Source: Heptranchias perlo
Taxonomy: Eukaryota
Length of the DNA: 64,000 nt
Direction of reading: 5' to 3'
Assembly (NCBI RefSeq): GCF_035084215.1
Contig: NW_027138892.1
Span: forward strand, 62,001 to 126,000
Both the position numbers and the translations under genes were made by a program. Each line of letters opens with the position of its first letter. Position 1 is the stretch's first letter. Positions 37,263-63,702 of the stretch are shown here, piece after piece. The notes under the pieces were generated by a model. It ran no database searches. It was given only the letters and a program-made list of their open reading frames with translations, and had not been told where the DNA came from.

Positions 37263-40116
37263 CTAGTTAAACTGGGTTTGCTTGTGTTTCCTGTTCAGGA
37301 ACAAGGCAATCCAAGAAGCAGAGATCAGAGAGACAGCGCTCACAGTCAGGGCCAAGATCAGGACCACCTCAGACGCCACACCGATAAAAGCAACAAGAAA
37401 CCAATGGTTAGTGAAGGAAATACTGAGGGGAAAATGGAAACTAGCAGTCGGCCAACTCACCACCTGGAGACCTCTCCTGCATCCTTTGCTCAACATCATT
37501 AAGGGGCTCAGTTGCCAGGTCTGTCACATGAGGATCCAGAATGACCAAGGGTCCAAGTGAGGCCTCACCCTCCCACTTCAACTCAGCATCACTCTCTGCA
37601 ATATCAAACATTCCAGTTAGAGAGTAAAGGGTGACCTCCAACAATCAAGAGGATCAATGTCCTACCAGGTCCAAATACAAGATCCCTCCTTCCTCTGGAA
37701 TCAACGAGGAAATCCCTTGTGGCACTGCAGTTGCCCAGATGACAACAGGCACACACGTCATTGGTCGATTCTTCCAATGGGGTCCAGCTCAACCAGAGAA
37801 TCAGTTTATCAACCAGGTTGTCCATCACCCTTTAATCAACACATCCCTGAACGAGAGAGGGAACTTACATATTCTGGAAAGTACAAGCCTTGTTCATGGA
37901 ATCTCTCCGATCCACTCCAGCAACTTTCAGGTGACAGGTGATGAAAATCTGAGGGACACATTCAATACAAGTTGTTATTTAGTGACCTCCTCCCAACATG
38001 GGGAACCCAATGTTTGGCTTCTTCTTACCAAGGAACGGTCATCTCCAAAGAAGCGGAACGCATCCAGGCCAAACTGGAGTTTGTCCAGCTCACGTTCACC
38101 TCTTGGCAACACAAAGGTTGAAAAGGAGTCCTCAGCTTTGCTGTCCAGGAGGCAACTGAAGAAAGATTTAAAAAGGGACAAAGTGAATTAAGTGAACCCA
38201 TTGAGACAGAACCAGCTGGAGAAAGCAGAGAGCTCCTTACCCATGGTAGTCAATGATGTTGTATCTTGGGGTGGAATCCTTGTCTGGGCTCAATGTAGCT
38301 GCACAGCTGTCAATGTAGAGCTTCAAGGGCATGTGGTTGGTCATTGAAACAGAGGCCTCAATGTGAATGAGGTCACCCAGGTAGTAGACAGTCAAGGTGC
38401 GCTCTGTAAGCCAGTCATCTGAAGTACAAGAGGAAAATGGTTGGAGACAGTGGGTGTAACTCCCAGTGGGAGACGACAGAAATGCACTCCCAATCCACCC
38501 ATCACATACCGTTCATAAGACGCAGTGAGAATGACAGAAGCCCTTCTCCAGACTTGGTCGAGCTGAATGGGATCCAGGTGGGCTTGATAGGGTCACTGCT
38601 CACATTGCCCTTCCTGGAAGGACAGGCGTGTAATTTCAGGACAACTTCAGAGAACTGCACCTGCTGTAGACCTTATTTGCAATAGAGTAAAGATACTTAC
38701 CTAAAATAGTGGCACTCAATGGGAATGACTGCTCCATTAGTTCTCACAATGACAGATCCACGAGCATTTGGGGTGTGGTTCAGGTGGGTGGTGTCGACCA
38801 GGAAATCGCCAGCCATCTGAAAGACATCAGGTTAAGGAATGAAGAGCTGGTCTCATTGGACAAAAGCTATTTCTGGTCATTTTCCTACCCTGTTAAGCAG
38901 CAGTTTAAGGGGTTTCAGCTGCTCCTCAATGACACATGATTGAAGTAGCTCCACCATTGGTTGAAGTTGCCTGGAGCAGCCTCTGTTGCTCTGCTCAGTC
39001 CACCTTCTGTTTCAGGGGACTTCAGGCCTGCAGTCAGAAACCCCTGAAATGATTGGCACTGCCAGATTTGATGAGCATTCTTTCCCATATAGATTAGAGC
39101 TTTCACCTTAAGGGGCTCAAGTTACCCCTGATATGGAGCACAAAACACAACATCACTTTTAAATCTCATCTGTGTCCGTGGAATCAATGGTATTGGCAGG
39201 TGCAACAACCAAAAGTGGAGTTCCCCTTTAATACACTGTATCCCAAATATTATTCCACTTGTTTCATCTTTCAAGGGAAGTCTCAACAGGAACTTCCACA
39301 CTGAACATTCATTGACCACAATTTGAGGCAACAGGCCTGAATATCCACAAGAAGGAACGGAAAAGATAAATCAATTGAGGCACAAAAGAACAGAGTGGTT
39401 TGGAGAAATGCAGGTGAAGGTTCAAGGTCAATAGAATTGAATCTCAGAGTTAGAGAGCAGCAATGACCCATTTAAGAAAGATGCAGTCCCTCAGTGACAA
39501 GTCGAAGTTCTTTTTAAATATAAAGCGAAGATTGACATGTCAAGATAAAGAAGTAGTTTCACACAGGGTGATACTTCACAGTGGGCAAAAATTTATACAC
39601 ATATTTCATTCAGGGATCTCCTCAGTGGCTGGAGTTTCCCCCGATGTTAATGAGTTCAGAGTGGGCAGTAATCTACACAGTGAAATTGGAGCAAGAGTTG
39701 AGGAATCACATTACCTGCAATCTGCTGCCACATTCATGGAGCCCATAGTCAAAGAGGACAGTGTGGTTCTGAGAGTAGATCCCAGTTGGCCGACAACCTG
39801 CTGTCCCCAGGGTCAGGTCAGCAGCTTTAATCAGGTGCCTGGTTCTAAATAAATCCATGTCTACCCTCACCAGCAGGTTCTGCTCTCCACACTGCACCAT
39901 CACAGTCTGCAGTGGAGACAGACTTCTCCCCTCAGACACACTGAAATGGGAACCAAAGGGAGGGACAGGGAGAGGGACTCTCTGGGGCACAGGGGTGGGT
40001 TTTACTCTTCTCCATGGAAATCTCTGGCCTACAAACTGTTGCCAAATATCAGAGCAACAAACCGCTCCAACTAACACCAGCACCGGGAACAAACCTCTCA
40101 CTACAAAATCCCCCAT
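37263..40116 (-). CDS. zp3: Zona pellucida sperm-binding protein 3-like (ZPC), 9 exons: 40116-39715, 38816-38701, 38613-38510, 38418-38241, 38155-38029, 37948-37869, 37787-37666, 37595-37461, ~37381-37263
   Basis: Signal peptide MGDFVVRGLFPVLVLVGAVCC; ZP-N/ZP-C motifs (LHECGS, IPIECHY, IKPTWIPF, FSLRLM, YYLGD, IFITCHLK, NKACTF, CACC); furin site RGRR; TM exon; phases consistent, introns GT-AG except the last acceptor (CG); polyA signal 37244-37249. Confidence 0.92.
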
Positions 40117-40160
40117 GATACCAAACAACTCAACTATCACTTTACCCATCAACCAGCACC

Positions 40161-40467
40161 TTTTTTTTTTTCTTTTTTTTTTTCTGGCCCCCCTTTTATA
40201 AAAAGGGGGGGGGGCGGGTGTTGGGTGTGCTTAAGTACTAAAAACCAAATAAAACGAAACCAGGCATCAAATTAAAATTTTATTTTCCTCGTCCAGGATG
40301 CACTCCAGCACCTGCGGTGCCCACCGGTCGCGGAAAGCCTCAAGCGTACCGGCAGACACCGCGTGCTCCATCTCCAGGGCCACCCGGGCGCGGAGCAACC
40401 CGCGAAAGAGAGGCAGACAGGCCGAGCGACCGCCCCCACGGACCGCGAGCATCCTGGACCTGTGGAT
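40161..40467 (-). mobile_element. Tx1 family A short 3' copy abutting the ZP3 5'UTR
   Basis: ORF2 C-terminus, terminal hairpin with TATAAAA, poly(A) ending 44 nt upstream of the ZP3 ATG. Confidence 0.9.
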
Positions 40468-40495
40468 ATCCAGGATGCACTCCAGTTTCGTCTAG

Positions 40496-42308
40496 TTTTC
40501 TGGTGGGTCAGTGGCGGGTGGACTCCCTGCCGGAGGAGCTCAGGCCTTTCGCCTGGAGTACCACGCACCTCCGGTACCTGGGAGTCTACCTCGGCCCTGC
40601 CGAGGAAGCCTGGCCGGCGAACTGGGAAGAGCTGGAGGCCAAGGTCGCCGCTCGCCTGGCGCGCTGGACAGGACTGCTCCGAGTGTTATCCTACAGGGGT
40701 CGAGTGCTGGTCATAAACCCGCTGGAGGCAGCCATGTTGTGGTACAGATTGGTCACTTTGACCCCACCCCCCGAGTTTGTCACCAAGATTCAGAGGAAGT
40801 TCGTCGACTTCTTCTGGGCCAGAGGGATACACTGGGTCGCTGCCGCGGTCCTGAGTCTCCCGCTTAGGGAGGGCGGTCAGGGGCTGGTGTGCGTCCGCAC
40901 CCAGGTGGCAACTTTCCGCCTTCGGACGCTGCGGCGATACCTGTACGTTGAGCGTCCTCTTAGATGGCGTGCGCTGGCGACGTATTTTTTCCGCCAGCTG
41001 CACGGCCTGAACTACGACACGCAGCTCCTGTTCGTCTCGCTGGTGGGGGGCCGCACGTCTTTGCAGGAGCTGCCTGTCTTTTACCAGGATCTGCTCAGGG
41101 TCTGGAACATGGTCGCCTCCGGTCGGAGCTCTCGCCCGTCAGGGGTAGCGGCCGTCCTGCAGGAGCCGCTGCTCGGGAATCCGTTCCTCCGCGATATCGG
41201 CTTCGGCCACTCGCGGCTGTCGGTGCGGAGGGCCGTGGCCGGTCGGGTGACCAGAGTCAGGGACGTCCTGGATGGCGGTGGGTCGGGTTGGTTGGAGCCG
41301 TGGGCGCTCGCCGCACGGATGTCCTCGTGGCGTGCCGGGGACGCGGCCATCGCCATCCGGGCGTTGAAATCGGCGCTCGGCCCTGACTCCACTCGGGATG
41401 TGGAGGCGGCTCAGGCGTGCGGAGCCATCCCGTCCGACCTGACCCCCGTTCGGACGGAGTTCCTCCTCGGCGCCAAACCCCAGAACCTCCCTCGGGGGGC
41501 CGCGCCTCACAACTTGAGTCGTCTCTCGGAAATTCCCTCCGTGCCGTTTCACACCGCGCGGAGGGATTTCCTGTACGGGCTGCTCCTGCACACCATCCAC
41601 TTCCTCGCCCTCGTCTCTCGGCCGGACACGCCCTGGCGTGCCATCCTGCCGTCCGGCGGAGACGGGGGTCCCCATTGGGAGGCTCTCTATACAGGGGTCC
41701 TCCCGTGTTACTTTGGGGATCTGGGGTGGAGGGTGGCGCACGGAGCAGTCGCGTGCAACCGGCGGTTACGCCATTTCACGGACACCCAGGCCGCTTGTGA
41801 TTTCTGCGGCCTGGAGGAGTCCGTGTTCCATCTGTACACTGGGTGTGCGAGACTGCAGCCCCTGTTCCATTATTTGGAGGGGCTGCTCCTCAAGTTCTGG
41901 CTGCACTTCAGTCCCACGCTCCTGATCTTTGGCCGCCCGGTGAGGAGGGGGGCGGGCAGGTCGGTGGACGTTCTCGTGGGCCTGCTCCTGGGCCTGTCCA
42001 AGGTGGCCATCCACAGGTCCAGGATGATCGTGGTCCGTGGGGGCGGTCGCTCGGACTGTCTGCCTCTCTTCCGCGGGTTGCTCCGCGCCCGGGTGGCCCT
42101 GGAGATGGAGCACGCGGTGTCTGCCGGTACGCTCGAGGCTTTCCGCGGCCGGTGGGCACCGCAGGGGCTGGAGTGCATCCTGGACGAGGATAATAAAATT
42201 TTAATTTGAACACTTGGTTTTGGTTTATTTGGTTTTTTAGTATTTAAGCACACCCCACACCCCCCCTTCTTATAAAAGGGGGGCCTAATAAAAAAAAAAG
42301 AAAAAAAG
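40496..42308 (+). mobile_element. Tx1 family A, 5'-truncated ORF2 (open frame to 42209)
   Basis: LRYLGVYL, LSYRGRVLVIN, EGGQGL, CDFCGLEESVFHL zinc knuckle; hairpin and poly(A) at ~42255-42308. Confidence 0.93.
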
Positions 42309-42309
42309 A

Positions 42310-42870
42310 GTTGATCAGGAAAATTAAAATTCTTCTTTGACTCTGGTTATTGATTTGTATTAAAAATAAAGTTGTCATCCTAAACCTACCCCCAGCCAAA
42401 GGGGCTTAAATAAAATCAAAAGCAAAAGAAATATCTAAATAAACCCGTTTAGGAGACACTGGGTTTGCCCTCGTGTCATCAACCCAAAATAAAGGATATC
42501 TAACAAAGGGGCACAACTAATAAACACCAAAATCAAACAAAAGACAAAGAAAACTTAGCAAATTAACTCATAATATTATTGGCAGTGTCTACCATACACT
42601 CCAGTCCCTGCTGTGCCCATCGGTCGTGGAAGGCCTCAAGTGTACCTGCAGACAACGCGTGCTCCTTCTCCAGGGCCACCCAGGCATTGAGAAAGCCGCG
42701 GCAGAGAGGTACGCAGCCAGAGCGACAGCCCCCATGGGCCATATCCAACCTGGACCCGTGGCTGGTCACCTTGGCCAGGCCCAGGAGCAGACTCATGAGG
42801 AGGTCCTCCGACTTGCCTCCCCCACTCCGCACCGGGCAGCTAAAGATCAGGAGCGCAGGACTGAAGTGCA
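42310..42870 (-). mobile_element. Older, diverged Tx1 family A-related 3' fragment
   Basis: HFSPALLIF..LLLGLAKV..EHALSAGTLEAFHDRWAQQGLEC. Confidence 0.8.
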
Positions 42871-43193
42871 AAATTCAATTAACTGTGATGCTGAGACAAT
42901 ATTCAAAGCAATCAAGTAGCCTTGAGTGAATTTGCAAACCAACCATTGGACAGAGAAATGGAAAACCCATCCCATGGATGGTGGGAATCGCCCCCAGTTC
43001 TAATATAGAGAATGGGTGTGTCTGAGGATTGGCAGCATGGGGGCATCAACTGGGCAAAGCATTGTGGGATGTGTCATTTTTAGTTTTGATTCTCATGAAA
43101 TGTTGTTTGGTAAAATTCAGGACATTCAGCGAGAATGAGAGGGAGTGAAGATTACTGAATGCAATGTCACCCACACAAACATCTCCATTTGTG

Positions 43194-44465
43194 TCAGCTG
43201 TGGCTCAGTGGCAGCACTCTCACCTCAGAGTCAGAAGGTTGTGGGTTCAAGTCCCACTCCAGGGACTGGAGCACAAAGTCTAGACTGATACTTCAGTGCA
43301 ACACTGAGGGAGTGCTGCACTGTCAGACATAAAAACATAAGAAATAGGAGCAGGAGTAGGCCATATGGCCCCTCGAGCCTGTTGCGCCATTCAATCAGAT
43401 CATGGCTGATCATCGACCTCAAATCCACTTTCCTGCCCAATACCCATATCCCTTGATTTCCCCTTGAGTTCAAACATCTATCTGTCTCAGCCTTGAACAT
43501 ACTCAACAACTCAGCTTCCATGGCCCTCTGGGGTAGAGAATTCCAAAGATTCACAACTCTCTGAGTGAAGAAATTCCTCCTTGTCTCACTCTGAACGGCC
43601 GACCCCTTATACTGCGACTATGCCCCCTAGTTCTAGACTCTCCAACCAGGGAAAACAATCTCTCAGGCCTGTCAAGCCCCCACAGAACCTTATATGTTTC
43701 AATGAGATCATCTCTCATTCTTCCAAACTCTGGAGAGTTTGGGCCCATTCTACTCAACCTCTCCTCAGAGGACAACCCTCTCATCACAGGAAATAATTGA
43801 GTGAACCTTCACCTCGAAGGCAAGTATATCCTTCCTTAGATAAGGAGACCAAAACTGTACGTAGTCCTCCAGGTGAGGTCTCACCAAAGCCCTGTATAAC
43901 TGTAGTAAGACTTCCTTAGTCTTGCACTCCAACCCCCTTGCAATAAAGGCCAACATGCCATTTGCTTTCCAAATTGCTTGCTGTACCTGCATGCTAACTT
44001 TTTGTATTTCTTTGTACGAGGACACCCAACATTTCTCTGAACACCAACATTTACTAGTTTCTCACCATTTAAAAAATATTCTGTTTCTCTATTCTTCCTA
44101 CCAAAGTGAATAACCTCATATTTCCCAACATCAGATGTGCCATCTTTCAGATGAGACATTATAATGAGGCCCTCTCTGCTCTCTCAGTTGGCTGTAAAAG
44201 ATCCCATGGCACTAATTTGAGGAAGAGCAGGGGAATTCTCTCCAGTGGCCAATATTTATCCCTCAACCTACATCACTAAAGCAGATTATCTGGTCATTAT
44301 CACATTGCTGTTTGTGGAACCTTGCTGTGCACAATTTGGCTGCCCCGTTCCCAACATTACAACAGTGACTCGACTTCAAAAGTACTTCATTGGCTGTGAA
44401 GCACTTTGGGGCGTCCTGAGGTTGTTAAAGGTGCTATAGAAATGGGAGTCTTTCTTTCTTTCTAT
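43194..44465 (+). mobile_element. tRNA-derived SINE (Deu-domain/SacSINE-like) split by a CR1 LINE (~43328-44130, -)
   Basis: Head tggctcagtgg..ggttcaagtccc; body gtaaaagatcccatggcact..gaagagcagggga resumes after the CR1; L2-like tail. CR1 shows RPHLEDYVQFWSP. Confidence 0.75.
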
Positions 44466-46041
44466 TTTCTCCATCGTGTTCCTTTTATGATCAGCGTTCA
44501 ATGAGGCTAAAGAATATTTAAATCTGATTGAAATGAGACTCTGATGTTCTCCAACAGTCTGGCTCATCACATTGGTGTTTCTCTGAGATCCAAAGTCTTG
44601 ACAGCTGGTTTCATTGCAAAATGGTTGAGGTTTTCAGTCCTGGATTATGTGATGAGATATATTGCCTTGGAATAAAACTTTTTTTTTTAGATGGGCTGGA
44701 GGGGATGGAAGTGATTCACAGCTGGAGCCACCAATCATTGTACAAACACTAGTCTTTTGGGAGATGCAACCCATGAGCATCGTTGACCCACATGAACTGG
44801 AAATATAGCTGGTATTTATACCTGTATTGGCCAGAAAGGATCCAAGATGTAGCGAATGACCTGCAGTCATGCAGAGCTTCGACCAAATGGATGGACACCA
44901 CAAGTTCATCCTCAACAGCCAGGCAGGTGCACACCAGAGACTTCAATTAAGTCCTTTGATTCCTGGCTCTGCGAGTACTTGATTTATGCTTTGCACAGGA
45001 CCTTTAAATTATGTATGGAATACTTGTAGGGAGTCTACCTACAAAGAAGCAGAGCTCTGCCTCGTTGTAGGCAGACTGTAGGAAACATCAGTCGGGCACG
45101 GGGTGATTATTAACCTAATAGTCTGTATGGTGTGAACAGTTAACCAGTGTTAGCCCAGTTGAAATCTGTGGAGGGAATACTTGCAGCTGATGCACATGGA
45201 AGTTCAGCACATTAAAGACTGGTTTGTCTGAACAATGAAGCCATCAAACCCACCAGCAAATCCAACCCAACTCGGTTGCTGCTCAGCAACATATGAAATG
45301 TTTAATATGACATCATATACTTACAACGTATACAGACAGTTAAAAAGGTTTTTTTGGGTTCACAAAACTGCAATCCTCTACTACATTCTTAACTTCAGTT
45401 GTAAATTCTGGATAATTACAGCTATTGCATCCAGAGTCTTTGAATCCACTCCTAAGTGTGAAGGAGACAAAGGGAGAGCTGGTAGGATTTGGAAAGGATG
45501 ATAGATTTATGGAGGAGCGATTGTATTGACTTTATGAATTGATGGATGAGTGGTGTGGAACAACAAAAAAGTTACAATATCTAATATTTTGTTACATCAA
45601 AGACAACACACAACACCAGTGACAACAGTAACTTCTATTACAGCATTGCTCTTTACTTCTGCTTTCAACACAATCATTCAAATGCATGAATGAAATTTGC
45701 ATTCAAGGTTTACACAGAATTGAAATTTGACCTTCAACACGTGGCCCTGAACATCTAATTCTTCAGAATTACTCCAAAAGGGAAGAAAAACAACTCAGAA
45801 ATGAACCCGACACTGGAGCTGTTAAATGTCATTAATCTGAAAAAGCTACTACTCAATTTAAGAGACAAAACCCAGTGCAATGTTAGAAACAGTTTATTTC
45901 CAGTTAATGACAATTACACATCAAGAGTCCAGATCTCACCTCTTTGTAGAAAGTCAAAAGCTATCAATCCTACAGGATGGGGGTCTGACTAGACTATAAA
46001 CAGGAGTACTAAACACAATAGGCTTTATCCCTGCAGTCAGT

Positions 46042-47940
<1,899 letters not shown>

Positions 47941-48000
47941 TCTAACTGTCTAAGAAGGTATTTTAACTAGCTGAACCAGGCTAACGTCTTCCCAAACTCT

Positions 48001-48235
48001 TTTTTTTTCTTTTTTTTCTTTTTCCTATTAGGCCCCCCTTTTATAAGAGGGGGGTGTGGGGTGTGCTTAAATACTAAAAACCCAAACAAACCAAAACCAA
48101 GTGTTCAAATTAAAACTTTATTATCCTCGTCCAGGATGCACTCCAGCCCCTGCGGTGCCCCCCGGTCGCGGAAAGCCTCGAGCGTACCGGCAGACACCGC
48201 GTGCTCCATCTCCAGGGCCACCCGGGCGCAGAGCA
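48001..48235 (-). mobile_element. Tx1 family A 3' copy inserted in the ferritin core promoter
   Basis: TSD ttcccaaactct at 47989-48000 and 48236-48247; poly(A) and hairpin. Confidence 0.92.
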
Positions 48236-48249
48236 TTCCCAAACTCTTC

Positions 48250-48400
48250 TATTTATATGTCTGGGGACAGCCTGCCTGTAATACAAGGCGTGGCATTCCC
48301 GATGATGAGTAAAAACTCACACTAGCCATTCAGAGCTCTACGCCCACTGAGGACACCAATCAAGAAAGAGGCGTAGTCGAGATTGTATTTAAGGCCAATC
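48250..48400 (-). promoter_or_regulatory. Displaced native ferritin promoter (TATAAATA 48257-48250; CCAAT ~48356, ~48394)
   Basis: Similar to the promoter of the intact ferritin at 55680-55790 (tataaata..gag.tttggg). Confidence 0.7.
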
Positions 48401-48590
48401 AGAACATTTTTTTTTCAATTAAGTAGATTTGTTTTGAATCAGGTTGACTTTTTTTGTATGTTTCGATCCCCTTTTATGAGATTGAGGGAGGGACGTTCAG
48501 GATGTAACTTTATTTTTTTTTTAAAAATCCAAAAACTAAATGATAACAGAGTCAAATAATAATTTTAATTTTTTTTTATGGGCAGTCAGC

Positions 48591-49170
48591 TTTTTTTTGT
48601 GTGTTTTAGGCCCCCCTTTTATAAGAAGGGGGGGTTAGGGTGTGTTCATGTGCAGTAAATCCAAAAAAAAAATAAGTGTCAAATTATAATTTTATTATCT
48701 CGGTCCAGGATGCACTCCAATCCCTGCGGTGCCCATCCGTCGCGGAAAGCCTCAAACGTACCGGCAGACACCGCGTGCTCCCTCTCCAGGGCCATCGCGG
48801 TGCGAAGAATGCTGCGGAAGAGAGGCAGACGGTCGGAGCGACCGTCCCCATGGGCCGGGTCGAGCCTGGACCTGTAGATGACCACTTTGGACAGGCCTAG
48901 GGCCAGACCCATGAGAATGTCCTCCGACTTGCCTGCGCCCCCCCCCCCCAAACTCCCCACTCCCCTCAACAGGTGGCCAAAGATCAGGAGCGTGGGACTG
49001 AAGTCCTCGTGGGTCTGGTCCTGGGCCTGTCCAAGGTGGCCATCTACAGGTCCAGGCTCGACATGGCCTATGGGGGGGCGGTCGCTCCGACTGTCTGTCT
49101 CTCTTCCGCAGCATTCTCCGTGCCCGGGTGGCCCTGGAGAAGGAGCACGGAGTGTCTGCCGTTATGTTTG
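48591..49170. mobile_element. Head-to-head pair of Tx1 family A-related 3' fragments (48591-49003 -, 49004-49170 +)
   Basis: Both translate to LGLSKV.IYRSRLD..; the minus copy ends in hairpin plus poly(A). Confidence 0.85.
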
Positions 49171-49987
49171 AGACCGGGGACTGGAGTGGATAGTTGATTA
49201 CGACAGTGACATTTTGGTTTAATTCGGTTTCATTGCTATGATTGGGTGTGCCACAAGAAAAAATTCTTACAGCACTTGAATAGGTTTTCGGGGTTCCTGA
49301 CACTGGGGCTCAAAGACCCATTAGAAAAAAAGAGAAACTCAGTGTCTCCTTCTTGTTCAATTAAAAGAGTAACATTGAGACAATGGCACCGAGGGACTGG
49401 ATAGCATGCTCGTAGTGGAAGGAATATTTTTTATTGAAGAGAGTGACTCAGGCTGACTGAAGCACAGGGACATGGACACACAGGCTGCAGACTGCACAGT
49501 GTTACAAGGGGACATGGGAATGGGTGGGATTCTGGGGAATGGGGGAGATGGGGAGAAAAGAACAGAACAAATGAGGAGCAGGGGGAGAAATCATTAGAAA
49601 GAGAGGTTAAAAAACAGACAGGTCACAGAATAAAAAGAAACAGCAGGTTAAAATGAAGTGAAGAAACTTATGAAGTAGAACAAGAGAAGTGATTGAATGA
49701 AAGGAGGATCCTGAAGATATTGGGTTTTTGTGTGTTTTTCCTTTTTTTTTGGTGTTTTTCGGCCCCCCCCACTTTTTTCAGGGGGTGGGGTTACGGTTTT
49801 TTTCCGTTCGTGTGATGAGAAAGCAGCTATTTGATTGGCTGCCAAACATTTATCATCAGTGATGTCACATCCTGTAGTTAAAGATGGGTTGGGTCTGAAA
49901 GAATAAATATAGCAGCTTAGGTTTGAGGTCCTTATGTTCATATTGTTTATAGTCAGTTGCTGGTCTATTTAAAAAAAAGTAGTTTGG

Positions 49988-53046
<3,059 letters not shown>

Positions 53047-55011
53047 CTGGACTGTTGTCCATGTTGCAGATATTCAACTTGTGTCTTGAAGTTTTATGTT
53101 GCCATCTCTCTGAACTGGGAATGGAATTCAAAGTCTAAGATTAACTTCCAAACATTGTAGTTGAGTGTTCTTGCAGCTGAAATAAAACATTTTGATGTTG
53201 AACTGGTTCCTTTTCTTCAGTAATTGAGCACATTCTAACACCAATGCACGTGGCCTTGCGTCAAACAAAAAAAGTTGTAAGAAATAGGTTGTCACCGTGA
53301 TAAAATCTGATTTGTTTGGGCACATGGATGTTTTAACCCCTTCCCCTCCAGAAGGCTTAATTTGGTTTTGTAGCAGCCTAGGATGGCCATCAGGCCAAAA
53401 TTAGATTTGTACCTAACAGCTTTCAATATTTGGTGTTCTGTAGTAGAGATTAAAGTGTAATCTGATTACAGTAAGACCTCTTCCTCCACATAGGCTTGAA
53501 TCCCTTTTGGAGAGAGTGCATTTTTTTATTACTATTCGTTCATGGGATGTGGGCATCAATGGTGATTACAGTAGTTAACCTTCTGGAATAAACAACCCCA
53601 CACATTGCTGCTGACTTGTCCATTGTAGGACATGAGGGAAGTGTTCCCTGAAGCAGGTATTCAAATTTAAGTAGTTACAAAAATCCTGGAGCAAAGTAAG
53701 ACCAAATCTCCAATTGCTGCTGCTAGGGTTACCTGGCTCTTTCCTCCTTCTCTTCAGCCCATCTTTTTCTTCCTGTGCAGAACTTTGGTCCAGCTCCTGC
53801 TATTTGTTTCAATCTCAATTTTTATTTTCCAGTCTCTGTTCACCTCATGCACCTTTTATATCCTGGACCCCATAGCCTCTAAAATACTTCCATTTGCTGT
53901 TGCAAATCTAAGAGCCCCTCTAAGTTTCCCTTGCTGGATTCTGTTTCATTAAACAGTTCTTGCCCCATTCCCCTCTCCTTGCGAATATAATCTTTGTGTA
54001 ATCTTATTTGGCCTGCAACCAAATGCCACTTATAAGTCTACTGAAGAGTTGGAGAATAGAGCCATCTAATTAAAGGCTAAACCACCAACTACTTGGTCTG
54101 TTTAAAGCTTTAACTGAGTTTGCACCAGTGATGTTCAGGTTATTCTCACACAGGGATCATATGATCAGATCAGTCCATCGACCCCACTTTTCGTTGCTTC
54201 ATCTTTCCTTCACTAGGTTCCACCTTTGATTTTTTAGCCTGCTGTTTGTTGTTGATCCGACAGTATTCTGATGTGATCTGGAACACAAAATATCCACGGA
54301 GCCCCATCCTTCCCTGACCGGATTTAGGGAAATATCAGTAACTCCCCTTTCCAATGAGAAAATTCACCACTCGACTCTTTCCACTTGGTGTTTGACTGTC
54401 CAAAAAGTACAAGAGATTAATCATTGAAACAAGGGATTACCAAACCCAGGAAATACCAGAGAGTCTGTTCACCACTGTCGCTCACTGTATATACAACCAA
54501 CACTACACAGTGTTTGCCTCTCACCGCAATCCCTCCCAACAACAAACCCGCCCCCCACCCCAAATCCCTTCAGTCAATGGTCCACAGTCTCTTCCCCGTG
54601 GAGTGCTCTGCATTTTATTGTTTGTAAAATGTCATGATGACAAAACAAGAACTCAACATGCCGTGGCCCCCTTCACTTTCCAGCCGATGTGTGTACAGAT
54701 GCTCACTGACCCTAGAATTGATGGAGTATTGAAGGACTTGTGTTTAACACGTTCATCACACCCACTTTCCATTCGCCTGACTCGCTGTTGGTTGCTGTTC
54801 ACAGGCTCTGATCTGTTTGGATGTTGCCTCAAACCCGCAGCTACTTGCCAAATAACCAACTCACGGATCCATCCAGAATTATTCAAAGACACTGACCCGC
54901 AAACAACAATTAAACCTGTGGTTCTGGATCTTTGAACCGTCACGATCAGTGACCATAACCGATGGGATGGGGGCCGATCCACCAATTGACAATTTGGTCC
55001 ATTATGGTCAA

Positions 55012-55558
55012 GTGCCCGGGTGGCCCCGGAGAGGGAGCATGTGGTGTCCACCGTTACGCTTGATGCCTTCCGCGACCGCTGGGCACCGCAGGGTATAGAC
55101 TGTCTTTCAGACATCAATAATAGAATCCTGATTTAATTGGGAAAGTATCCTGTTGTTTTTGGTGGCACTTGATGCTTATTTTGGTATCTTTTCAGTTTGA
55201 TTGGACCATCCAATATTAGTGGTGCCCTGAGAGGGCCACTTGTGATGGTTTATGTTTGGTGACCCTGGGGCAACCCAGAGTCTCCCTTATTGGTCCATCA
55301 AAGAAAGGTCGATTATGGTCAAGAATATGGTCGCGATCAGATTTTTTTTTCTTTGGAGTGTGGGATGGAAGAGCAGCCATGGTTTTTTTGCTTTTCCTTT
55401 TTTTGTGTTTTAGGCCCCCCTTTTATAAGAAGGGGAGGGGGGGTTGGTTGTGTTTATGTGCAGTAAATCAATAAACCCAAAATAAGTGTCAAATTATAAT
55501 TTTATTACATCGATCCAGGATGCATTCCAGTCCCTGCGGTGCCCACCGGTCACGGAAA
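55012..55558. mobile_element. Two Tx1 family A-related 3' fragments (55012-55140 +, 55382-55558 -) upstream of ferritin
   Basis: gcccgggtggcccc..cgcgaccgctgggcaccgcaggg; hairpin ggccccccttttataagaagggg plus poly(T). Confidence 0.8.
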
Positions 55559-55609
55559 CAGATTTTACAGTTTGAGGAAAGTCAAAGCAATTGGATCTTT
55601 ATTGAATTG

Positions 55610-55780
55610 TCAGCCAATGATGCTCCTCCTTCAAAGTTCTGACTGGCTCTGGGTGTCATCTCCCCTCCTCCCTTTTCTTGATTGGTGTTCTGAGAGAGGA
55701 TGTAATTTCTGATTGGGTATTGCCAACTGTCACGCATCATCTAGGCTGCCACGCCCAGGATTAACCAGCAGTATAAATAT
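55610..55780 (+). promoter_or_regulatory. Ferritin promoter: CCAAT/ATTGG boxes and TATAAATA (55772-55779)
   Basis: agccaatga ~55612, gattgg ~55680 and ~55711; TATA ~80 nt upstream of the ATG. Confidence 0.7.
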
Positions 55781-55853
55781 GGAGCTTTGGGTGGCTGTTT
55801 TTCAGTTTCTTGCTTCAATAGAGTTGTTTAGTTTTGTTAAAGTTAATTTAAAG

Positions 55854-58410
<2,557 letters not shown>

Positions 58411-59779
58411 ACTGACTGCAGGGATAAAGCTTATTGTTCAGTACTCCTGTTTATAGTCTGAAGAACCCCTATCCTGTAGCAATGGTGACTTTGTACTAAG
58501 AGCTGTGAGACCTGGGCTCTTGATGTGAAATGTAATAGTAACTGGAAATAAACTGTTACAGAAGACTGGGTTTTGGCTCCTTGTAAATTGAGTGATTGCT
58601 TATTTTTCAGATTAACATAATTCAGCTGTTGTAACAAATTACATTGGGCTATGTATTGGCTTTCGGGTGAGATTCTGCCCTATGACATTTTTTCTTCTGG
58701 GGTCATATCAATGTAGTGACTTGGGTGTTGAGAGCCAATGTGTCTGCCTTGAGTGTAAATTGTATTTATGCAGTAAAATGATTACTGCTGATTTCAATGC
58801 AAAGAACAATACAGTAATGAGTTACTGTTCCTATTAGTACTGCATATTATCAACTGTTTAACTCATTAATGATGCAAAATCAGCTGCTGTAACATTTTGT
58901 TCCAATAAAACACAAGGAAAGTGAACTAGTAATTTCAGTCCAATAGGCAATTTTTTGAAGAATAGTATCTGCCTGGGGAAGAACAATCCAGATGCTTTTT
59001 TTTCAAAGATGCGACAGACCTCAGTAGGTAGTTGGGGTAGCTTATGAAATCACTCACTATTACTCCTAATAAACTGTTTGTTTGGAGTCAAATAGGTCTC
59101 ATATGGGGGAGTGCAGGTTCCCTGTTTGTCTATTTCCCTTCATTTTCATCTTCTGCCCCCAACCCCCTGTTAATCTCCCCCATGAATAATAAATTGGGTA
59201 TGGTACAGGAAAAAATACCTCGAACTAAACTCCAGCAAACAAAATCTTCCTTCTGGGAGATGTAGTAAATGCACTAAACAACGAACTTGAACCATTAAGT
59301 TGAATAGATAAGGCTCCTAAACTCTTCCATACCACTACTGTTCCATCAATTCATAAACCCAATATAAGCAGCTCATCCATAAATCTATCAATTTGTATTT
59401 ATCCCATTGTGCAGTTAATACTAGATTACAATTCTAAATTCTGCTGGATCACCATTTCATTGAAACCAAGTTAAATAGATATTTTGCCTGAAACTCCACA
59501 TCCCAATGCCATCAATTCATAAACACAATACAATCAGCTCCTCCATAAATGTGTCGATTTGCCTCTAGTCCTATTGTGTGTTCCATACCAAATTCTAATC
59601 AACCTTTCCAAATCCTATGGGTTCTCCATTCATCTCCTTCACCCCTATGAATGGATTCAAATGTTGATGCTGTAGCTGTAATTATCCAGTGTTTCCAAGT
59701 GAAGTTTAGGAACTTGTGACTTGCACTGGGTGTGATAGAATTGCCGTCTTCAGTCAGTCCATGTTAATATCTTTATATT

Positions 59780-60070
59780 GATGGAGTAAATAAGGGGAAA
59801 CTGATTCCAGTAGCAGACCGGTTAGTAACCAGCAAACACAGATTTAAGGTGATTGGTAAAAGAACCAGAAGTGACACGAAACTTTTTTCAGTGTTCTGAT
59901 CTGGAATGCATTGCCTCATCGGGTGGTGGAAGCAGATTTAATAACTTTCAAAAGGAAATTGGATAAATACTTGAAGGGGGAAAGAGCAGGGGAGTGGGAC
60001 TAATTGGATAGCTCTTTCAAAGAGGCAGCATAGGCACAATGGGCTGAATGGCTTCTTTCTGTGCTGTAAT
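59780..60070 (+). mobile_element. CR1 3' fragment
   Basis: Similar to other CR1 ends in the window (gtggaagcagat..ggataaatacttgaagggg). Confidence 0.7.
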
Positions 60071-60189
60071 AGTAGGATATTATGATCTCTAAAGGCACTT
60101 TTGGGATATCAATGTCACCACATTTCATACGTTGTTGAGCCATAATTTTAGGAGTCAGTGTGGATTATCTGGTAGCTTTGACTGCTGCA

Positions 60190-60568
60190 TAGTTCGCACC
60201 TTTGAGGTGTAGTCACTGTTGTAAGGTAAGAAATGCGGCAGTCAATTTGCCTCCAGCAAGGACCCAAAAACAGCAATGAAATATTGACCTGATAATCTGT
60301 TTTAGTGATGTTAGTTGAGGGATAAATATTGGTCCAGATATTGGGGAGAACTCCGCTGCTCTTCCTCGAAATAGTGCTGTGGGATATTTTACGTCCACCT
60401 GAGAGAGCAGATGAGGCCTCGATTTAATATCACATCCAAAAGACGGCACCTCCGACAGTACAGCACTCCCTTAGTCAGCCTAGATTATGTGCTCAAGTCT
60501 CTAGATGATGACTTGAACCAACAACCTTCTGACTCTGAGGTGAGAGTGCTGCCACTGAGCCACAGCTG
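60190..60568 (-). mobile_element. tRNA-derived SINE (same family as 43194), uninterrupted
   Basis: Reverse complement head tcagctgtggctcagtggcagcactctcacctcagagtcagaaggttg. Confidence 0.75.
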
Positions 60569-61000
60569 ACACAAATGGAGATGTTTGTGTGGGTGACATT
60601 GCATTCAGTAATCTTCACTGCCTCTCATTCTCGCTGAATATCCTGAATTTTACCAAACAACATTTCATGAGAATCAAAACTAAAAATGATGCATCCCACA
60701 ATGCTTTGCCCAGTTGATGCCCCCATGCTGCCAATCCTCAGACACACCCATTCTCGATATTAGAACTGGGGACGATTCACACCATCCATGGGATGGAATT
60801 TCCATTTCTCTGACCAATGGTGGTTTGCAAATTCACTCAAGACAACTTGATTGCTTTGAATATTGTCTCAACATCACAATCACCAACAAGTAATAAACTT
60901 GACCAGATTATGAAAAGCCACTTCAGTGAAAATATCAAATTATTATCAAATAATTCAAAGTTATGATTCCAAGAGATTGAAACAAAGAGAAACTTTCAGA

Positions 61001-62856
61001 TTTTTTTTTTCTTTTTTTTTTCACTTTCAGATTTTTTTTTCCCTTTTTTTCCTTTTTTTTTATTTTGTTAGGCCCCCCTTTTATAAGAAGGGGGTGTGGG
61101 GTGTGCTTAAATACTAAAACCAAACAAACCAAAACCAAGTGTTCAAATTAAAATTTTATTCTCCTCGTCCAGGATACACTCCAGCCCCTGCAGTGCCCAC
61201 CGGTCGTGGAAAGCCTCGAGCGTACCGGCAGACACCGCGTGCTCCATCTCCAGGGCCAGCCGGGCGCGGAGCATTCCGCGGAAGAGAGGCAGACAGGCCG
61301 AGCGACCGCCCCCACGGACCACGATCATCCGAGACCTGTGGATGGCCACCTTGGACAGGCCCAGGAGCAGGCCCACGAGAACGTCCACCGACCTGCCCGC
61401 TCCCCTCCTCACCGGGCGGCCAAAGATCAGGAGCGTGGGACTGAAATGCAGCCAGAACTTGAGGAGCAGCCCCTTCAAATAATCAAACAGGGGCTGCAGT
61501 CTCGCACACCCCGTGAACAAATGAAACACGGACTCCTCCGGGCCGCAGAAATCACAAGCGGCCTGGGTGTCCGTGAAATGGCGTAACCGCCGGTTGCACG
61601 CGACTGCTCCGTGCGCCACCCTCCACCCCAGATCCCCGATGGAACACGGGAGGATCCCTGAGTAGAGAGCCCCCCACTGGGAACCCCCGTCTCCGCCGGA
61701 TGGCAGGATGGTACGCCAGGGCGTGTCCGGCCGAGAGACGAGGGCGAGGAAGTGGATGGTGTGCAGGAGCAGCCCGTACAGGAAATCCCTCCGCGCGGTG
61801 TGAAACGGCACGGAGGGAATTTCCGAGAGACGGCTCAAGTTGTGAGGCGCGGCCCCCCGAGGGAGGTTCCGGGGTTTGGCGCCGAGGAGGAACTCCGTCC
61901 GAACGGGGGTCAGGTCGGACGGGATGGCTCCGCACGCCTGAGCCGCCTCCACACCCCGAGTGGAGTCAGGGCCGAGCGCAGATTTCAACGCCCGGATGGC
62001 GATGGCCGCGTCCCCGGCACGCCACGAGGACATCCGTGCGGCGAGCGCCCACGGCTCCAACCAACCCGACCCACCGCCATCCAGGACGTCCCTGACTCTG
62101 GTCACCCGACCGGCCACGGCCCTCCGCACCGACAGCCGCGAGTGGCCGAAGCCGACATCGCGGAGGAACGGATTCCCGAGCAGCGGCTCCTGCAGGACGG
62201 CCGCTACCCCTGACGGGCGAGAGCTCCGACCGGAGGCGACCATGTTCCAGACCCTGAGCAGATCCTGGTACAAGACAGGCAGCTCCTGCAAAGACGTGCG
62301 GCCGCCCAACAGCGAGACGAACAGGAGCTGCGTGTCGTAGTTCAGGCCGTGCAGCTGGCGGAAAAAATACGTCGCCAGCGCACGCCATCTAAGAGGACGC
62401 TCAACGTACAGGTATCGCCGCAGCATCCAAAGGCGGAAAGTTGCCACCTGGGTGCGGACGCACACCAGCCCCTGACCGCCCTCCCTAAGCGGGAGACTCA
62501 GGACCGCGGCAGCGACCCAGTGTATCCCTCTGGCCCAGAAGAAGTCGACGAACTTCCTCTGAATCTTGGCGACAAACTCGGGGGGTGGGGTCAAAGTGAC
62601 CAACCGGTACCACAACATGGCGGCCACCAGCTGGTTTATGACCAGCACTCGACCCCTGTAGGATAACACTCGGAGCAGTCCTGTCCAGCGCGCCAGGCGA
62701 GCGGCGACCTTGGCCTCCAGCTCTTCCCAGTTCGCCGGCCAGGCTTCCTCGGCAGGGCCGAGGTCGACTCCCAGGTACCGGAGGTGCGTGGTACTCCAGG
62801 CGAAAGGCCTGAGCTCCTCCGGCAGGGAGTCCACCCGCCACTGACCCACCAGAAAA
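61001..62856 (-). mobile_element. Tx1 family A ORF2 fragment (inverted paralogue of 40496-42308)
   Basis: 630-aa frame nearly identical to 40317..42209; hairpin and poly(A) at ~61001-61095. Confidence 0.93.
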
Positions 62857-62884
62857 CTAGACGAAACTGGAGTGCATCCTGGAT

Positions 62885-63188
62885 ATCCACAGGTCCAGGA
62901 TGCTCGCGGTCCGTGGGGGCGGGCGCTCGGCCTGTCTGCCTCTCTTTCGCGGGTTGCTCCGCGCCCGGGTGGCCCTGGAGATGGAGCACGCGGTGTCTGC
63001 CGGTACGCTTGAGGCTTTCCACGACCGGTGGGCACTGCAGGGGCTGGAGTGCATCCTGGACGAGGAAAATAAAATTTTAATTTGATGCCTGGTTTCGTTT
63101 TATTTGGTTTTTAGTACTTAAGCACACCCTACACCCCCCCCTTCTGATAAAAGGGGGGCCTAAAAAACACAAAAAAAAGGAAAAAAAA
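62885..63188 (+). mobile_element. Tx1 family A short 3' copy abutting the second ZP3 5'UTR
   Basis: Mirror of 40161-40467; hairpin loop reads ctgataaaagggggg. Confidence 0.9.
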
Positions 63189-63300
63189 GGGTGCTGGTTG
63201 GTGGGTAAAGTGATAAAAGAAAAAGAAAAAAAGGGAAAAAAAAGAGAAAAAAAAAAGGTGCTGGTTGGTGGGTAAAGTGATAGTTGAGTTGTTTGGTATC

Positions 63301-63702
63301 ATGGGGGATTTTGTAATGAGAGGTTTGTTCCCAGTGCTGGTGTTAGTTGGAGCCGTTTGTTGCTCTGATATTTGGCAACAGTTTCGAGGCCAGAGATTTC
63401 CATGGAGAAGAGTAAAACCCACCCCTGTGCCCCAGAGAGTCCCTCCCCCTGTCCCTCCCTTTGATTCCCATTTCAGTGTGTCTGAGGGGAGAAGTCTGTC
63501 TCCACTGCAGACTGTGATGGTGCAGTGTGGAGAGCAGAACCTGCTGGTGAGGGTAGACATGGATTTATTTAGAACCAGGCACCTGATTAAAGCTGCTGAC
63601 CTGACCCTGGGGACAGCAGGTTGTCGGCCAACTGGGATCTACTCTCAAAACCACACTGTCCTCTTTGACTATGGGCTCCATGAATGTGGCAGCAGATTGC
63701 AG
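63301..63702 (+). CDS. zp3: ZP3-like, exon 1 of a second copy (gene continues past the window end)
   Basis: MGDFVMRGLFPVLVLVGAVCC..YGLHECGSRLQ|gtaatg; near-identical to 40116-39715. Confidence 0.9.

Follow-up and report, generated by a model that had tools for sequence, protein, structure and literature searches.

Site choice by long interspersed nuclear elements (LINEs), and the way in which they gain promoters, are open questions, and the Tx1 families described to date hit fixed repeats. A stretch of 64,000 nucleotides from the genome of Heptranchias perlo (contig NW_027138892.1, positions 62,001 to 126,000; over its full length referred to as the window) raises the question of whether a family of this clade can settle at gene starts. 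Fragments of one Tx1 family lie in it next to genes for ZP3, ferritin and tRNA-Asp, and the initial annotation proposed that the family lands almost only at gene 5' ends and may recognise promoter architecture or open chromatin of germline- or oocyte-active genes. Genome-wide, an excess of insertions beside promoters is real but partial, and the window is explained by amplification of a gene array together with promoter-resident copies that serve as source elements, both of which the initial annotation overlooked. As to the underlying process, the evidence moderately favours a loose endonuclease that cuts open germ-line DNA, with copies in ZP3 and ferritin promoters becoming the main sources and duplication of the array multiplying the events.

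Insertions beside promoters

The genome contains about 2,500 candidate copies of the family. Dispersed copies were located with a diagnostic 21-mer (339 matches) and a 19-mer of a sister subfamily (184 matches). From 171 candidate ends listed outside the array, 101 insertions bearing a target site duplication (TSD) were retained, namely 71 of 101 candidate ends in a discovery set and 30 of 70 in a holdout; the 30 discovery and 40 holdout ends left out had no TSD or a doubtful one, repeated an event already counted or carried Tx1 sequence in the flank. Copies L194 and L238 keep Tx1 sequence in one flank, which was masked for the CpG-island test. With repeats masked, a unique CpG island lies within 400 nt of 19 of the 101 sites, compared with 20 of 456 random windows (odds ratio 5, p=5e-6); the random windows came from 38 regions, and a bootstrap over regions puts the background at 2.0-7.5%. 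The excess is present in both sets, at 13/71 discovery and 6/30 holdout sites (holdout p=0.002 against 4.4% and 0.022 against 7.5%). Masking was adopted after a first CpG test without it had given little signal (8/73 versus 38/608), and it is for this reason that the holdout carries the weight. The signal fades with distance, from 18/197 at 0-400 nt to 14/196 at 400-800 nt, 6/175 at 800-1200 nt and 1/65 at 1200-1600 nt, and is back to background past ~800 nt.

Judged by eye, ~14 of the 19 island sites are real first exons with promoter motifs, compared with ~4 of 21 random island windows. TOMM7, Rieske and LSM11 (exon 1) were identified at such sites, and a fourth gene matches DUF4611 below the cut-off; the dispersed targets identified are housekeeping genes, and the proposed restriction to oocyte-specific genes is not supported. 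An ATG was called at nine sites, at four of them by eye, which was also how a fifth gene was identified. In seven of the nine the insertion precedes the ATG by 152-245 nt, both orientations being represented, and in the other two it falls in intron 1. One-sided controls rarely adjoin an island (CR1 1/51, Keno-like Tx1 0/28, L2/SINE 0/13, solo long terminal repeat (LTR) 0/60), and counted as flank sides the family stands at 18/202 versus 1/152 for the pooled controls (p=0.0005); the contrast with CR1 and L2 that had been drawn in the window is thus borne out for the pool, each control alone being underpowered. The CpG-island test is blind to promoters without islands, such as those of ZP3 and ferritin, so the true promoter share may be higher. 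Of the proposal that the family targets promoters or open chromatin, the genome-wide excess and the lack of a long target survive; exclusivity (at most 19/101) and a preference for TATA boxes do not.

Sequence at the insertion sites

The TSDs are mostly 10-16 nt long, and the sole sequence signal at the nick is (T/C)(G/C/T)|A(A/G), with A at +1 in 84 of the 101 sites and TG before it in 29 of those 84. There is no long target sequence. The targets of Keno, Dewa, Mutsu and Kibi/Koshi were not found: no tRNA gene lies within 500 nt of any of the 101 dispersed sites (the Dewa type), no (TC)n or (TTC)n microsatellite occurs at any of them (the Kibi/Koshi type), and neither U2 snRNA nor 5S (the Keno and Mutsu types) was seen in the 60 dispersed loci scanned with Rfam. 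Among promoter motifs, neither the TATA box (12/101 versus a background of 13.9%) nor the GC-box or the cAMP response element is enriched there; in an unbiased k-mer scan AGTTG alone survived correction, and it is partly accounted for by the nick itself. An E-box lies within 50 nt of 26/101 sites, compared with 8.8% of background. The promoter sites form no common sequence cluster, and a fixed distance from the transcription start site (TSS), as in Tf1, Ty3 and TRE5, does not describe most insertions, at most 19/101 lying near a CpG-island promoter, the class of promoter that was scored.

The best repeat target is a single, rare solo LTR of 215 bp, in or within ~60 nt of which lie 12 of 161 dispersed loci, and no single sequence type occupies more than 20% of flanks. 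The same LTR is otherwise met four times in 1.26 Mb (Poisson 5e-19). Insertions into it are at varied positions, with three independent hits at LTR positions 50-63. This LTR family (L159:9120-9332; L309-L338) has TG..CA ends and 5-bp TSDs and numbers 3307 candidates, a few copies being flanked by sequence resembling a primer-binding site and a polypurine tract; it may be a germ-line promoter. The Keno-like Tx1 family used as a control (window 21401-23030; L280, L294, L342) has 885 exact 3' ends, and with just 2 of 30 sampled copies in U2 its specificity looks relaxed.

An intact relative of Tx1L

The family is an intact, recently active Tx1-clade LINE of the Tx1L lineage. Intact copies are ~6.8 kb long and often tandem, with a first open reading frame (ORF1) of 679 amino acids containing a zinc knuckle and a second (ORF2) of 1310 amino acids containing an apurinic endonuclease-like (APE) domain, a reverse transcriptase (RT) and a zf-RVT domain; the ORF2 matches in Pfam are Exo_endo_phos, RVT_1 and, weakly, zf-RVT. 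The nearest named full-length protein is Tx1L of Xenopus laevis (YTX2_XENLA), to which ORF2 is 51% identical over 99% of its length and the RT region 63%. An RT tree of 27 rows, rooted at the midpoint with no L1 outgroup and including 26 of 120 hits, pairs the family with a stingray protein, adjoining Tx1L and proteins from sturgeon and turtle (support 90/80 for the clade containing Tx1L and 100/99 for the wider clade), which confirms the placement in Tx1 made initially and points to a cartilaginous fish as the likely host. The hallmarks of target-primed reverse transcription are present, namely an A-tail, 5' truncation and, at the 101 sites, a TSD.

Several copies show structures of their own. 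The 5' truncation of six or more dispersed copies, located on different chromosomes, falls at nearly one base (element positions 5772-5775), the mark either of a truncated source copy or of a site at which the RT stops. Copies L125, L131 and L246 are truncated at different points and have in common a ~75-nt 5' addition that is foreign to the element and has no Rfam match; a TSD at the junction is absent in two of the three, and the addition possibly reflects a template switch to another RNA. Two long copies (L240, L103) sit within a tandem satellite of ~170 bp. In L140 and L204 young copies lie inside the 3' UTR (untranslated region) of an older Tx1 relative, and at L140 the young and the older copy occupy one CpG-island promoter, repeated hits on the same promoter. 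Copies also pile up outside the ZP3 array, nine of them truncated at C14:36.187-36.197 Mb and at least three full-length at C13:73.365-73.381 Mb.

3' transduction and promoter capture

In 51 of the 101 dispersed copies the element is followed by an A-tail, a short piece of other sequence, a further A-tail and the TSD. By our count 35 of 64 such pieces come from ZP3/ferritin units; another source, located on C13/C16/C23, contributed 15, and the remainder are Tx1 heads or unmapped. Those from the ZP3/ferritin units derive from the promoter (both strands), exon 1, intron 1 and the upstream stack of insertions. The starts of the pieces, which were chosen by eye, look like endonuclease nicks: a native A precedes 21 of 26 source junctions (28% expected), and TG|A is the commonest context, as at the dispersed nicks. 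Captured mRNAs were considered as an origin of the pieces and rejected; no cluster representative mapped to the last exon of ferritin, and read-through from source copies is therefore preferred.

Host promoters are also found at the other end of the element. Among full-length copies, L091 and L100 have as their 5' head the ZP3 promoter in sense together with ~70 nt of exon 1, L097, L093, L094, L095 and L099 have the ferritin promoter in antisense, and L208 has a third, CCAAT-bearing type; L097 still lies beside its ferritin exon 1. A contig of run X4 spans positions 496-867 of L100, crossing the boundary between its ZP3 part and the Tx1 5' UTR, and lends weak support to transcription of the ZP3-headed element (one sample; its status as RNA is guessed).

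The last A-tail before the TSD has a composition of its own (L004, L026, L056 and others), with 5.9% G (78/1329 nt) and less than 1% each of T and C. G occurs in 33 of 36 tails of at least 15 nt; the tails of 30 Keno-like copies are short and essentially pure A. TENT4 enzymes perform mixed tailing of RNA, and the G-bearing tails may reflect either a TENT4-like activity or slippage.

The duplicated array and the window

The window is one unit of a heavily duplicated ZP3/ferritin/tRNA array, and in the neighbouring 150 kb identical insertions recur as duplicated units; one further event there lies ~0.6 kb 3' of a gene for a seven-transmembrane receptor, with no known 5' end at that place. Candidates for ZP3 exon 1 number 249, of which 40 were scored, on C38, C725 and C1048. 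C38:9-17.7 Mb and C725 form a large array of ZP3, ferritin and tRNA genes with inverted duplicated units. The features of the window that bear on the question, by position and strand, are as follows.

19285..19358, minus: tRNA-Asp(GTC), identified with ARAGORN and Rfam
19468..19762, minus: Tx1 3' fragment, 96% to a full-length copy by sequence comparison, 110 nt upstream of tRNA-Asp; TSD at 19454-19467 and 19763-19776
21401..23030, plus: Keno-like Tx1 of the separate control family, within a 54-bp minisatellite
39701..40160, minus: ZP3 exon 1, copy 1, ATG at 40116 (Pfam ZP-N)
40161..40467, minus: Tx1 fragment A, in the A-run of the ZP3 TATA box, sense to ZP3
40468..42310, plus: Tx1 fragment B, 1.8 kb, 98%, head to head with fragment A; the native CCAAT/E-box promoter of ZP3 is absent here
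42311..42420, plus: older Tx1 3' end, read by eye and missed initially; its start recurs as a transduced piece in dispersed copies
42521..42870, minus: older sister-subfamily fragment, 77%
47836..47940, minus: ferritin 1 exon 1, TATA at 48250-48257, from spliced contigs
48001..48235, minus: Tx1 fragment, sense, nick 1 nt past the ferritin-1 TATA; TSD of 13 nt (47989-48001 and 48236-48248)
48591..49172: sister-subfamily fragment (minus, 48591-49003) and inverted piece (plus, 49000-49172), between the divergent promoters of ferritin 1 and 2
~49740..49795, minus: candidate decayed 3'-end remnant (hairpin and tail; weak, by eye), 250 nt from the ferritin-2 ATG
55008..55163, plus: old Tx1 fragment ~700 nt upstream of ferritin 3
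55383..55558, minus: sister-subfamily fragment upstream of ferritin 3; its 3' flank turns up transduced in dispersed copies
55854..55955, plus: ferritin 3 exon 1, TATA at 55772-55779
61043..62884, minus: second copy of fragment B (duplicate)
62885..63256, plus: second copy of fragment A (62885-63189) with a repeated block of ZP3 5' piece and A-tail, stopping 44 nt before the ZP3 ATG at 63301

ZP3 and ferritin were identified with Pfam and the tRNAs of the window with ARAGORN and Rfam. The introns of ferritin and ZP3 have GT..AG joints in contigs (four runs, one sample; RNA status again guessed), and the contigs used for splicing and transcription carry no information on starts, strand or levels.

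Every Tx1 fragment listed in the initial annotation is present, and its distances (44 nt to the ZP3 ATG, 110 nt to tRNA-Asp, ~300-840 nt to the ferritin-3 ATG) are correct; the two clear TSDs are both real and unrelated to each other. In line with its caveat that the two ZP3 copies are one event duplicated, fragments A and B are duplicated, and the insertion at the TATA box recurs in 23 of 30 fetched ZP3 paralogs, the box being intact in the other 7. In the empty paralogs a CCAAT box and an E-box precede the TATA box, whose A-run is the insertion point, and both ZP3 copies in the window have had their upstream promoter replaced. Insertions have filled the ZP3 promoter at no fewer than three different junctions inside a span of 100 nt: the TATA box, about -80 and about -90. 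The fragment next to tRNA-Asp represents a single event, and a paralog near 26590 is empty; targeting of tRNA genes finds no counterpart at the dispersed sites.

Of the 11 listed Tx1 pieces in the window, eight are no more than 1 kb from the 5' end of a gene and three are stacked on the ZP3 insertion; the background is given by 36% of the window and by 15 of the 40 blocks of other repeats, which lie equally close to a 5' end. The impression that the family occurs almost only at gene 5' ends reflects this duplicated unit; across the genome, no gene start is recognisable at the majority of dispersed copies. Two other features of the unit may be recorded. The ferritin-2 promoter (window 49650-49730) has a stretch resembling the ZP3 promoter, possibly moved there by Tx1 transduction, and the 54-bp minisatellite, variable in length, immediately precedes intact ZP3 promoters and occurs in the window at 23033-23749 as well.

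Proposed roles of accessibility, homing and amplification

The preferred account would begin with an endonuclease of loose nick motif sampling DNA that is accessible in the germ line, with mobilisation presumably taking place in oocytes. Copies landing in the very active promoters of ZP3 and ferritin would come under their transcription, serve as the main sources and supply the heads of full-length copies; new copies would hit the heads and tails of the sources again, giving rise to tandem arrays and stacks, and segmental duplication of the array would then multiply each event. The pattern in the window would thus be the product of a modest genome-wide bias, a hot-spot at the sources and duplication.

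Several observations weigh against this account. We infer the openness of the DNA from sequence, and activity in oocytes from the names of the genes. The CpG-island test is failed by 82 of the 101 dispersed sites, and 44 of them touch another repeat (228/456 random windows do so), which is what refutes landing almost only at 5' ends. The control families are small when taken singly (p=0.14 for CR1 and likewise for the Keno-like Tx1). For several promoter junctions the evidence consists of transduced pieces, with no filled genomic site, and some of these could be transcript starts. Accessibility alone does not account for the common orientation of 11 of the 12 insertions at the solo LTR, and a single Keno-like copy among 28 also sits 122 nt away from this LTR, so that the hot-spot may not be family-specific. 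Two candidate target motifs were tried and dropped, the NF-Y box because 12/71 discovery sites were followed by 0/30 in the holdout, and the E-box, picked post hoc, because its 21/71 discovery sites were followed by a non-significant 5/30.

A more specific variant, for which we hold a distinctly lower expectation, is a vertebrate LINE that has exchanged sequence targeting for homing, being guided to active germ-line promoters at their upstream edge; it would repeatedly take the promoters of the most active oocyte genes as its 5' heads and spread pieces of promoters by chained 3' transduction, the ZP3/ferritin array serving as its breeding ground. Rather doubtful, too, is a tether, by which a protein of the element would bind a host factor sitting on the promoter (TBP/TFIID, NF-Y, a basic helix-loop-helix E-box factor or the Pol II machinery) and the nick would fall just upstream of the TSS, in the manner of Tf1, Ty3 or TRE5. 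The narrow upstream band occupied by seven of the nine ATG-called sites would fit a tether, as would the ZP3 and ferritin 1 nicks in or 1 nt from a TATA box, the E-box frequency given above and the lack of islands beside the Keno-like Tx1; yet most insertions are far from promoters, no motif was cleanly replicated in the holdout, TATA is unenriched, and the band could be the residue of purifying selection viewed through a 400-nt search window.

Targeting of a sequence or a transposon, as in relatives of the family, is improbable. Here the solo LTR or a short motif would be the true target and promoter hits would be by-products, an idea that draws on the clustering, shared orientation and three close hits at the LTR, on the kinship with Tx1L and on crocodilian Tx1 families that are reported to prefer LTR retrotransposons (PMC4494074). 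The share of loci at the LTR is 7%, however, below the 20% at which the same study calls a family target-specific (PMC4494074), the positions span the LTR and reach past its end, and the promoter sites lack a common sequence cluster. A complete lack of bias, with segmental duplication having amplified a handful of chance insertions into an A/T-rich array, is very improbable: the array does repeat the same insertions, and 33 of 71 matches of one diagnostic 21-mer are on C38, C43, C725 or unplaced contigs, but single-copy promoters on other chromosomes show an excess that is local and was replicated, and the ZP3 promoter has been filled at several different junctions.

With the combination of open DNA, promoter-resident sources and duplication as the preferred account, a young relative of Tx1L shows a measurable bias to promoter edges, is fused to identifiable host promoters and bears source tags on half of its copies. 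In many ZP3 paralogs it has taken the place of the native promoter, and it carries promoter fragments to new loci. Promoter capture, the hierarchy of source elements and the choice between accessibility and tethering thereby become testable in one genome, and the intact copy allows target choice to be tested against the endonuclease and ORF1 of Tx1L.

Comparison with known systems

Among families of the Tx1 clade, Dewa targets tRNA gene arrays and Mutsu 5S rDNA. The present family has the clade and non-random insertion in common with these, with Keno and Kibi/Koshi, and with the crocodilian Tx1-Mar, Tx1-8_Crp, Tx1-4_AMi and Tx1-9_AMi; unlike Keno, Dewa, Mutsu and Kibi/Koshi, it has no U2, tRNA, 5S or microsatellite target at its dispersed sites, and a Keno-like family exists separately in the same genome. 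According to the crocodilian study, Tx1 targets comprise Tx1D, U2, microsatellites, Mariner, Harbinger and LTR elements, Tx1L itself targeting Tx1D, a DNA transposon (PMC4494074). Tx1-8_Crp and Tx1-4_AMi, which the same study describes as preferring LTR retrotransposons, resemble the present one in its LTR hot-spot but not in the small share of loci that this represents (PMC4494074). The nearest named relative, Tx1L, differs in having a single target; for the family described here there is just a short nick motif together with a bias that depends on context. A search of the literature turned up no Tx1 family described as biased to promoters or as capturing them, Repbase reports, subscription papers and supplements lying outside the scope of the search.

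Insertion upstream of the TSS without a long target sequence is also a feature of Tf1 of fission yeast, Ty3, TRE5 of Dictyostelium and the P element. These are LTR or DNA elements, or are specific for tRNA genes, and they are far more exclusive than the family studied here. In one study, a small set of de novo human L1 and Alu insertions in induced pluripotent stem cells was biased to gene 5' ends, which was ascribed to open chromatin (PMC4729875). For zebrafish, a report places LINEs away from genes and attributes much expression of transposable elements to host promoters (PMC9341512).

The bias in H. perlo is seen at distances of up to a few hundred nt from the first exon. Human L1 is likewise an APE-RT LINE with a short A-rich nick motif, TSDs of 10-16 nt and 3' transductions that mark the source, and L1 lineages swap 5' UTRs. 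By comparison with human L1, half of the copies here bear transductions, often chained, and the captured promoters belong to identifiable host genes that still flank the elements.

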